This document shows positions 753 through 1,022 of a stretch of 13,698 nucleotides of DNA, in pieces. A program made the translations under genes and the position numbers. Source of the DNA: a virus (lineage: Duplodnaviria; Heunggongvirae; Uroviricota; Caudoviricetes). Each line of letters opens with the position of its first letter. The stretch's first letter is position 1. The stretch lies in IMG/VR virus record IMGVR_UViG_2526164602_000022, positions 1 through 13,698 of that record. One strand, given 5' to 3'. Below the pieces are notes generated by a model. That model searched no databases, was not told the DNA's origin, and was given only the letters and a program-made list of their open reading frames with translations.

Positions 753-1022
753 CTATTTCATCCCGCCAATATTTTCCCACCTCCCGTCAGCACGTAGGAT
801 TTGCAGCGGTCTTACCATGCACTGTATCTGCTTTTTATCCGCATCCAGTATCACCACCTGTGTGATTACCCTGTCCTGCTCCGGAATAATGCCATTCTCA
901 TCTGACTCCAGGATGTCTGCCGGCCCCAGTCGCAGTTGTACTGTAAGCGACTGCCCGTGTTCACAGTCATCATGCTTTCCGCAACCACACAGACGCTCCA
1001 TAAGCTTTCTCAAAATATTCAT
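753..1022 (-). CDS. hypothetical small Cys/His-rich protein (89 aa) translationally coupled to the tail fiber gene; possible tail fiber accessory or chaperone
   Basis: ORF track 753-1154 (TTG start, overlaps the tail fiber 3' end). An internal ATG at 1020-1022 lies 1 nt past the tail fiber stop (TGA c ATG), so the short form is preferred. Contains CGCGKHDDCEH. No family recognised. Confidence 0.45.
   Translation of the reverse strand: MNILRKLMERLCGCGKHDDCEHGQSLTVQLRLGPADILESDENGIIPEQDRVITQVVILDADKKQIQCMVRPLQILRADGRWENIGGMK

Follow-up and report, generated by a model that had tools for sequence, protein, structure and literature searches.

In prophages of enterohaemorrhagic Escherichia coli (EHEC), the tail fibres EPclA and EPclB carry a PfC domain (PF06820), predicted to be all-beta and about 62 amino acids long. 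It has been reported that the PfC of EPclA trimerises alone and renucleates the collagen helix, and that recombinant EPclA made in E. coli forms trimers with no partner protein (Ghosh et al. 2012, PMC3368898). In prophage Sp5, whose genes were deleted systematically, the fibre gene ORF67 was essential and the neighbouring ORF68 was among the non-essential late genes; no frameshift signal was seen, and ORF68 was suggested to be a reservoir sequence for fibre variation (Mondal et al. 2016, PMC5155283). In phage phi24B, lateral fibres folded back against the capsid were seen, and the C-terminal domain of the lateral fibre gp61 was neither resolved nor confidently modelled by AlphaFold (bioRxiv 10.64898/2026.04.10.717836). 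Here we analysed a stretch of 13,698 nucleotides (nt) from a tailed phage (Caudoviricetes; IMG/VR record IMGVR_UViG_2526164602_000022, positions 1 to 13,698), referred to as the window, in which an open reading frame (ORF) of 89 amino acids follows the gene of a collagen-like tail fibre homologous to gp61. The small ORF is the already known gene L0122/ORF68/gp59 of Shiga toxin (Stx) and related lambdoid prophages (Z1484 in strain EDL933), which RefSeq names 'phage tail fiber C-terminal domain-containing protein'. It was shown to be a selected, expressed, translationally coupled and dispensable partner gene of PfC-tipped fibres.

The small protein stands alone and is paralogous to the knob at the C-terminus of the preceding fibre. 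Its residues 28-89 match the complete Phage_fiber_C profile of Pfam (PF06820; profile positions 1-64 of 64, E 3e-36, 124 bits against a cut-off of 25), and PHROG 576 covers it from end to end (1-89 of 89, E 4e-59). The fibre has its own Phage_fiber_C match (E 1e-35) besides Collagen (4e-43) and Phage_fiber_2 (5e-18), belongs with PHROG 366, and begins with a CarboxypepD_reg-like domain and a phage_tail_N match under the Pfam cut-off. The PfC segments of the two proteins are 33% identical by BLASTP (E 1e-10). Because the small protein shares PF06820 with the C-terminus of the fibre, it is not a new kind of protein. An earlier sequence-only reading of this DNA had proposed a different kind of fibre chaperone or a small virion accessory protein, and had recommended a remote homology search. 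Run as profile searches, this search gave no Tfa-type chaperone: at E values up to 1, PF06820 was the only Pfam family found, PHROGs yielded fibre families alone, and NCBIfam had no match. The lack of similarity to Tfa was thereby upheld and an accessory remains the best guess, but the family was already known (PF06820, PHROG 576) and the copy of the fibre domain had been missed.

The protein begins MNILRKLMERLCGCGKHDDCEHGQSLT and reads MNILRKLMERLCGCGKHDDCEHGQ up to a C-terminal GGMK, with CGCGKHDDCEH as residues 12-22. An AlphaFold2 (AF2) monomer predicted from a 26-sequence alignment (predicted local distance difference test, pLDDT, 57; predicted TM score 0.35) has a helix at residues 3-12, disorder up to residue 27 and six beta strands, with pLDDT below 50 for residues 1-27. 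When this low-confidence model was compared with the Protein Data Bank (PDB) by Foldseek, nothing was found under E 0.15, the best match being the Mu fibre/chaperone complex 5yvq_A, which is not significant (E 0.15, TM score 0.34). Searches of PDB sequences by phmmer and by profile gave chance matches only, with no solved PfC relative among the PDB copies searched. A lipoprotein or signal-peptide reading of MNILKKLMQRLCGC was rejected by inspection, as the segment has neither a hydrophobic core nor a lipobox. A search of 1.8 billion representative proteins gave 57 matches, nearly all of them the same protein or its fragments; a Streptomyces locus (L086) was discarded as a chance match within an unrelated ORF, probably a methyltransferase. 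The representative search also returned a protein of 565 amino acids (P0149), in which four tandem PfC-like modules with the pattern WEF.L.DG....KTVVVL.AD....G.LRVR.ADG.W..IPA.KG are followed by collagen repeats. PfC-like units thus exist in other architectures too.

The gene is widespread. The stretch of fibre and small ORF is 98.8% identical in DNA to 933W, VT2-Sakai (Sp5) and many other Stx phages, the small protein is 93% identical to L0122 of 933W, and 296 phage records carry it. Among complete E. coli genomes in RefSeq, 701 of 5,426 match the 1.3-kb stretch with the gene, at a median of 11 places per genome. Carriers include both short-tailed Sepvirinae (933W) and long-tailed lambdoid phages (cdtI, 2851); across these tail types, the protein encoded after the fibre is at least 87% identical. 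The copies in 933W, Sp5 and phi24B resemble that of the window in length (89 amino acids), identity (about 93%), 1-nt spacing and PF06820. Compared with the alleles of this family, the window allele has the minority variants Cys20 and Glu9, and its gene is followed by nleG, whereas the tail genes L0123-L0125 follow in 933W. A small ORF 93% identical to the E. coli gene was also found in Xanthomonas pisi DSM 18956 (L084; contig_138, 725 nt), most likely as E. coli contamination of that assembly. A glyphosate microarray paper that mentions Z1484/ECs1229 says nothing about function.

Selection on the gene was measured in two samples: 80 IMG/VR loci found with the small protein (86 copies), and 80 loci picked independently by the last 85 residues of the fibre alone. 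In the first sample, 85 of the 86 copies are intact at 89 codons. In the second, an intact ORF is present in 76 of the 80 loci, the exceptions being three contig ends and one frameshifted copy (L099); the co-occurrence with this fibre C-terminus that the sequence-only reading had wanted checked is therefore borne out. For 59 alleles, the ratio of nonsynonymous to synonymous substitution rates (dN/dS, Nei-Gojobori method) is 0.15, and for 91 alleles it is 0.21, the synonymous divergence being about 0.15. The ratio is unevenly distributed: 0.07 for codons 1-12, 1.09 for codons 13-27 and 0.08-0.16 for the PfC, with 0.25 (70 alleles) for the PfC of the fibre itself. The small ORF is a real gene under purifying selection as a protein.

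The way the gene is started was also conserved. In the window, the fibre stop TGA occupies 1026-1024, a single C lies at 1023 and the ATG of the small ORF is at 1022-1020; the ORF of 89 amino acids beginning 1 nt past the fibre stop and containing CGCGKHDDCEH, as reported earlier, was confirmed from the sequence. So was its coupling to the fibre gene, with the 1-nt spacing and an AGGAG inside the fibre's end. The junction GGAGAATGAC followed directly by ATG is present in 83 of the 86 copies, and the other three are single-base variants in or just 5' of the Shine-Dalgarno sequence. The least variable stretch of the whole module is the 30 nt before the ATG (nucleotide diversity 0.001-0.016); diversity rises right after the ATG and jumps past the stop. 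In Salmonella, the frame of the small ORF closes five codons upstream of the aligned ATG. Because of the invariant upstream stretch and this diversity pattern, independent initiation at this ATG is supported, against the TTG-started form of 133 amino acids and the ATG-started form of 102 amino acids that some records annotate. The suspicion that a longer TTG form might be the true frame is contradicted by the near-invariant 30 nt and by the closed Salmonella frame.

Orthologues of 79 amino acids, 47-59% identical overall, were found in Salmonella enterica. In one Salmonella locus (L087) the gene order is J, then further on the fibre and the small gene. The fibre there has 468 amino acids with phage_tail_N, Phage_fiber_2 and Phage_fiber_C but no collagen, and the 79-amino-acid PfC gene overlaps its end, with AGGAGG before it and a terminator hairpin after it. 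The segment equivalent to the helix of codons 3-12 reads M[TI][IL]FKKIKH. A prophage remnant of Citrobacter rodentium and a second Salmonella contig (L171) have this pairing as well. Comparison of E. coli with Salmonella gives 57-64% identity for the PfCs of the small proteins, whereas either small PfC is 31-37% identical to any fibre PfC, and the fibre PfCs of the two genera are 37-40% identical to each other (one full-length Salmonella fibre). By this comparison the stand-alone copy is an old paralogue, more conserved across genera than the fibre tip, whose split from the fibre domain predates the E. coli/Salmonella divergence of the module. What the small gene accompanies is the PfC tip of a fibre and not a collagen shaft. 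The pairing itself is old and stable, being found with collagen-type fibres of short- and long-tailed E. coli phages and with the collagen-free fibre of Salmonella.

The protein is expressed, because peptides of gp59 are present in the purified-virion proteome of phi24B. The supplement to that study lists VITQVVILDADKK and ADGTWENIGGMK with three spectra each (bioRxiv 10.64898/2026.04.10.717836), and its protein table implies about six peptides and 11 spectra for gp59, where the fibre has 2,559 spectra. Going by these supplement entries, the gp59 count is about 1/230 of that of the fibre, or about 1/30 per residue, and the small protein co-purifies with virions at trace level only. Searches of the main text of the preprint for gp59, gp60 or the small gene found nothing, and the peptides appear to be an unreported detection. 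One entry of the spreadsheet, a fusion of fibre and gp59, bears the label 'Spike or just gp59?'.

These observations can be combined into a working model in which the known L0122/ORF68/gp59 gene encodes a dispensable, trimeric accessory of PfC-tipped fibres; we consider the chances that this overall reading is right to be about even. The gene is translated from its own Shine-Dalgarno sequence and ATG, 1 nt past the fibre stop. Its product would most likely form a homotrimeric knob, because the PfC of EPclA trimerises on its own (PMC3368898). This knob would act in trans on PfC-tipped fibres as a dispensable helper of assembly or stability, and would bind the fibre tip weakly or transiently, remaining largely absent from mature virions.

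Several points weigh against this model. Trimerisation of the small protein is extrapolated from the PfC of EPclA, its contact with the fibre is presumed, and the AF2 monomer is poor (pLDDT 57). Phages lacking the gene still assemble the fibre and infect strain K-12, and recombinant EPclA forms trimers in the absence of the small protein; therefore, any helper role can be at most quantitative or host-specific. The argument from conservation across genera rests on one full-length Salmonella fibre, and simple co-evolution with the fibre tip would not predict that the small protein is more conserved than the tip. Moreover, the trace of gp59 in virions could be contamination.

The accessory model sets the small protein apart from two kinds of known component. 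Like the Tfa proteins (lambda Tfa, P2 gpG, Mu Tfa; Caudo_TAP), it is encoded by a closely coupled gene directly after the fibre (J - lom - stf - X); the sequence-only reading was right that the ORF fills the tfa position, as phages 2851 and cdtI have the order J, lom, side tail fibre, this ORF. However, the small protein is half the size of a Tfa protein, shows no sequence or profile similarity to one, and is homologous to the tip domain of its presumed client. It is also dispensable for infectivity, though the fibre is essential in Sp5 (PMC5155283). A chaperone role of the obligatory kind conflicts with the non-essential ORF68 beside an essential fibre gene (PMC5155283) and with the partner-free trimerisation of EPclA (PMC3368898). 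On the accessory model, the small protein is neither a Tfa-type chaperone nor a conserved metal-binding protein. With the PfC of EPclA and EPclB it shares PF06820, the predicted all-beta structure and a domain of about 62 amino acids, but at 31-37% identity to fibre PfCs it belongs to a separate, more conserved orthologous group. It is joined to no shaft of collagen or coiled coil, and 27 residues extend it at the N-terminus.

A more specific form of the accessory model is that the small protein represents an unrecognised class of fibre accessory, the paralogous knob, in which a free trimer of the tip domain would either bind the fibre tip head-to-head or assemble with it into mixed trimers. 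We regard this form as doubtful. Such a knob would set the register of PfC-tipped fibres, or would hold lateral fibres, like the folded ones of phi24B, back on the capsid until host contact. T4 fibritin ends in a small module, the foldon, by which the register of its trimeric fibre is set, and the likeness of the foldon to PfC is one of analogy only. The foldon acts in cis and is not homologous, whereas here a second copy is encoded in trans.

Among the alternatives to the accessory model, the reservoir idea of Mondal et al. (2016) fares best, and it is still unlikely. It holds that the gene stores an alternative C-terminus, whose value lies in recombining into the fibre gene and not in its own product. 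The homology to the fibre C-terminus and the non-essentiality of ORF68 (PMC5155283) fit this idea, and two rearranged loci show that exchanges of this kind do occur, though rarely. In one (P0058, L089 4-291), a collagen repeat is fused in frame to a small-type PfC through the 7-nt microhomology CCGGCAG; in the other (P0120, L090 2697-3246), a tandem duplication has the order fibre, chimeric small ORF (small N-terminus plus the fibre PfC half), normal small ORF. However, the collagen fusion is the sole one found, a fragment at a contig edge that accounts for four sequences. Among hundreds of homologue clusters, every protein more than 80% identical to the small-type PfC is at most 168 amino acids long, and no full-length fibre carries a small-type PfC. 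Exact matches between the two PfC coding segments are nowhere longer than 10 nt, a length insufficient for homologous exchange to be efficient, and the paralogues split before the E. coli/Salmonella divergence of the module. Selection also acts on parts that a cassette would not need, namely the near-invariant ATG and Shine-Dalgarno sequence and the helix (dN/dS 0.07), and the protein is made, judging by the listed gp59 peptides. The published reservoir idea is weakened by these results.

It is also quite unlikely that the small protein is a tip-bound adaptor or adhesin, that is, a trimer that remains attached to the far end of the fibre in the virion and there confers or alters receptor binding, as T4 gp38 does, being dispensable only on laboratory K-12. 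The position of the gene, like that of tfa or gp38, and its translational coupling to the fibre gene would suit such a role; dispensability was assessed on K-12 only (PMC5155283), listed peptides come from purified phi24B virions, and the unresolved C-terminus of the phi24B fibre leaves room for extra density (bioRxiv 10.64898/2026.04.10.717836). Against this stands the amount of protein, since the spectral counts available in the supplement (about 1/230 of the fibre, about 1/30 per residue) are far from stoichiometric. A receptor-binding protein would usually diversify, but the small protein is better conserved than the fibre tip, and the same protein (at least 87% identical) is found behind fibres on phages that differ in tail type.

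A very improbable alternative is that the protein is a metal-binding fibre chaperone, with CGCGKHDDCEH as a zinc site, that functionally replaces Tfa. Position and coupling of the gene fit this proposal, and Cys12, Cys14 and His17 are near-invariant, within E. coli alleles only. The suggestion that CGCGKHDDCEH could bind metal nevertheless fails, as the set of three to four Cys/His ligands is not conserved: of 59 alleles, 36 have Arg in place of Cys20 and 11 have Asn in place of His22, and the linker varies at positions 19, 20, 22, 23, 24 and 25. The linker, residues 13-27, evolves neutrally (dN/dS 1.09) and is predicted to be disordered. In Salmonella, the orthologues have no KHDDCEH segment, about 10 linker residues being missing, and contain two, one or no Cys. 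Because Cys20 and His22 vary, the linker is neutral and Salmonella does without the segment, a conserved metal site is refuted. A chaperone of this kind is further disfavoured by the lack of a match to Tfa or any other chaperone family, and by the dispensability of the protein for infectivity and fibre trimerisation (PMC5155283, PMC3368898).

That a +1 slip of the ribosome or in transcription, such as one at the T7 run (1117-1123), joins the small ORF to the fibre and gives the fibre a second tip is extremely improbable. It is true that in 61 of 64 E. coli contexts the frame of the small ORF stays open over the 46 codons upstream, that the window has its T7 run 101 nt ahead of the ATG, and that the phi24B authors put two hypothetical fusions into their search database (bioRxiv 10.64898/2026.04.10.717836). 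However, over the 64 contexts T7 is present in 29, no run of at least 5 is present in 21, and the rest have T5, T6 or T8, so there is no conserved frameshift device. The Salmonella frame closes five codons before the ATG, a slip at the run would break the fibre's own PfC, and Mondal et al. saw no signal either (PMC5155283). In the phi24B supplement, the sole peptide unique to a fusion entry is SVVVSGTLK (88 spectra), which is the fibre N-terminus, and no junction or upstream-frame peptide is among the entries listed, those outside the listing having low spectral counts. The entry 'Fusion_6159_FS1' (88 unique spectra) was accordingly rejected as a fusion product, its listed peptide being fibre N-terminus and not junction. 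The T7 run itself (minus strand) lies inside the PfC coding region of the fibre and varies by substitution, not by insertion or deletion; it is a possible hotspot of sequencing error or slippage.

Finally, a decaying remnant of an old fibre-tip replacement without present function is scarcely credible, for although the gene is non-essential (PMC5155283), degenerate 3' fragments of the ORF lie downstream in some loci and one copy is frameshifted (L099), the clear purifying selection at a synonymous divergence of 0.15 and the intactness of about 99% of complete copies already refute this reading for the full-length copy, and orthologues persist in Salmonella.

The features at the end of the fibre operon and in its surroundings are listed in Table 1. 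The small gene is the last gene of this operon. The hairpin past its stop has a centroid energy of -18.1 kcal/mol, and the minimum free energy of the 57-nt stretch is -21.3 kcal/mol (z = -3.8), with none of 200 shuffles equally stable; a perfect version, CCGGAG-TCCGG-CTCCGG-TTTTT, was found in related loci. A simple consensus terminator scan did not call the terminator at this place, despite the strong folded hairpin.

Table 1 Positions of the small ORF, its parts and neighbouring features in the window
Feature	Position	Strand	Remarks and basis
Small ORF, 89 amino acids plus stop	753..1022	minus	Orthologue of 933W L0122, Sp5 ORF68 (ECs1229) and phi24B gp59
Codons 3-12 of the small ORF, predicted N-terminal amphipathic helix (ILRKLMERLC)	987..1016	minus	Strong constraint; AF2, dN/dS
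Codons 13-27, Cys/His-rich linker (GCGKHDDCEHGQSLT)	942..986	minus	Variable, predicted disordered; dN/dS, alleles, AF2
Codons 28-89, stand-alone PfC (PF06820) domain	756..941	minus	Pfam
Shine-Dalgarno sequence AGGAG of the small ORF	1029..1033	minus	6 nt 5' of the ATG, within the last fibre codons
Collagen-like tail fibre gene, 645 amino acids	1024..2961	minus	Type of 933W L0121, Sp5 ORF67 and phi24B gp61
PfC (PF06820) domain of the fibre, amino acids 571-634	1060..1251	minus	Paralogue of the small-ORF domain; Pfam, BLASTP
Hairpin and U-run directly past the small-ORF stop	711..741	minus	Likely intrinsic terminator closing the fibre operon; RNA fold
nleG, downstream of the small ORF	65-640	minus	Type III secretion effector, NleG family PF06416, E 1.5e-46
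Overlapping ORFs of 108 and 296 amino acids	12308-13521	plus	Presumably orfA/orfB of the IS3 family

Similarity in DNA to 933W ends about 55 nt past the small-ORF stop, around position 696 of the window, and variable cargo starts right after the terminator. In the window this cargo is the effector gene nleG; at other loci it consists of NleG-like ORFs, other unassigned ORFs or the tail genes of 933W. The other cargo ORFs are probably further type III effectors, judged by their N-terminal residues. Decayed partial copies of the 3' end of the small ORF, accompanied by the same hairpin, are found again about 1 kb further downstream, in the intervals between consecutive nleG genes (L062 about 4040-4190; L059, L063, L064, L051, L010), and these copies suggest that effector cassettes accreted by recombination at the conserved end of the module. 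At the other side of the window, the overlapping pair of ORFs, which we take to resemble IS629/IS1203, lies just past a gene like that of the terminase small subunit, at the head end of the prophage. A scan for defence systems (PADLOC) gave no match.

The gene, its domain and its dispensability were already known from publications and annotation, and no part of the protein is under less constraint than the Cys/His motif. What is added here is selection at the protein level, an old paralogue that is conserved as far as Salmonella, and peptides listed in a virion proteome, which together weaken the idea of a silent reservoir. The gene is present in essentially every Stx-converting phage, and genomes of EHEC and enteropathogenic E. 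coli have about ten copies each. If the doubtful proposal of a paralogous knob were true, the small protein would, under certain conditions, influence the host range or the stability of Shiga-toxin phages. An effect on fibre assembly or host range, if established, would bear on the spread of these phages.

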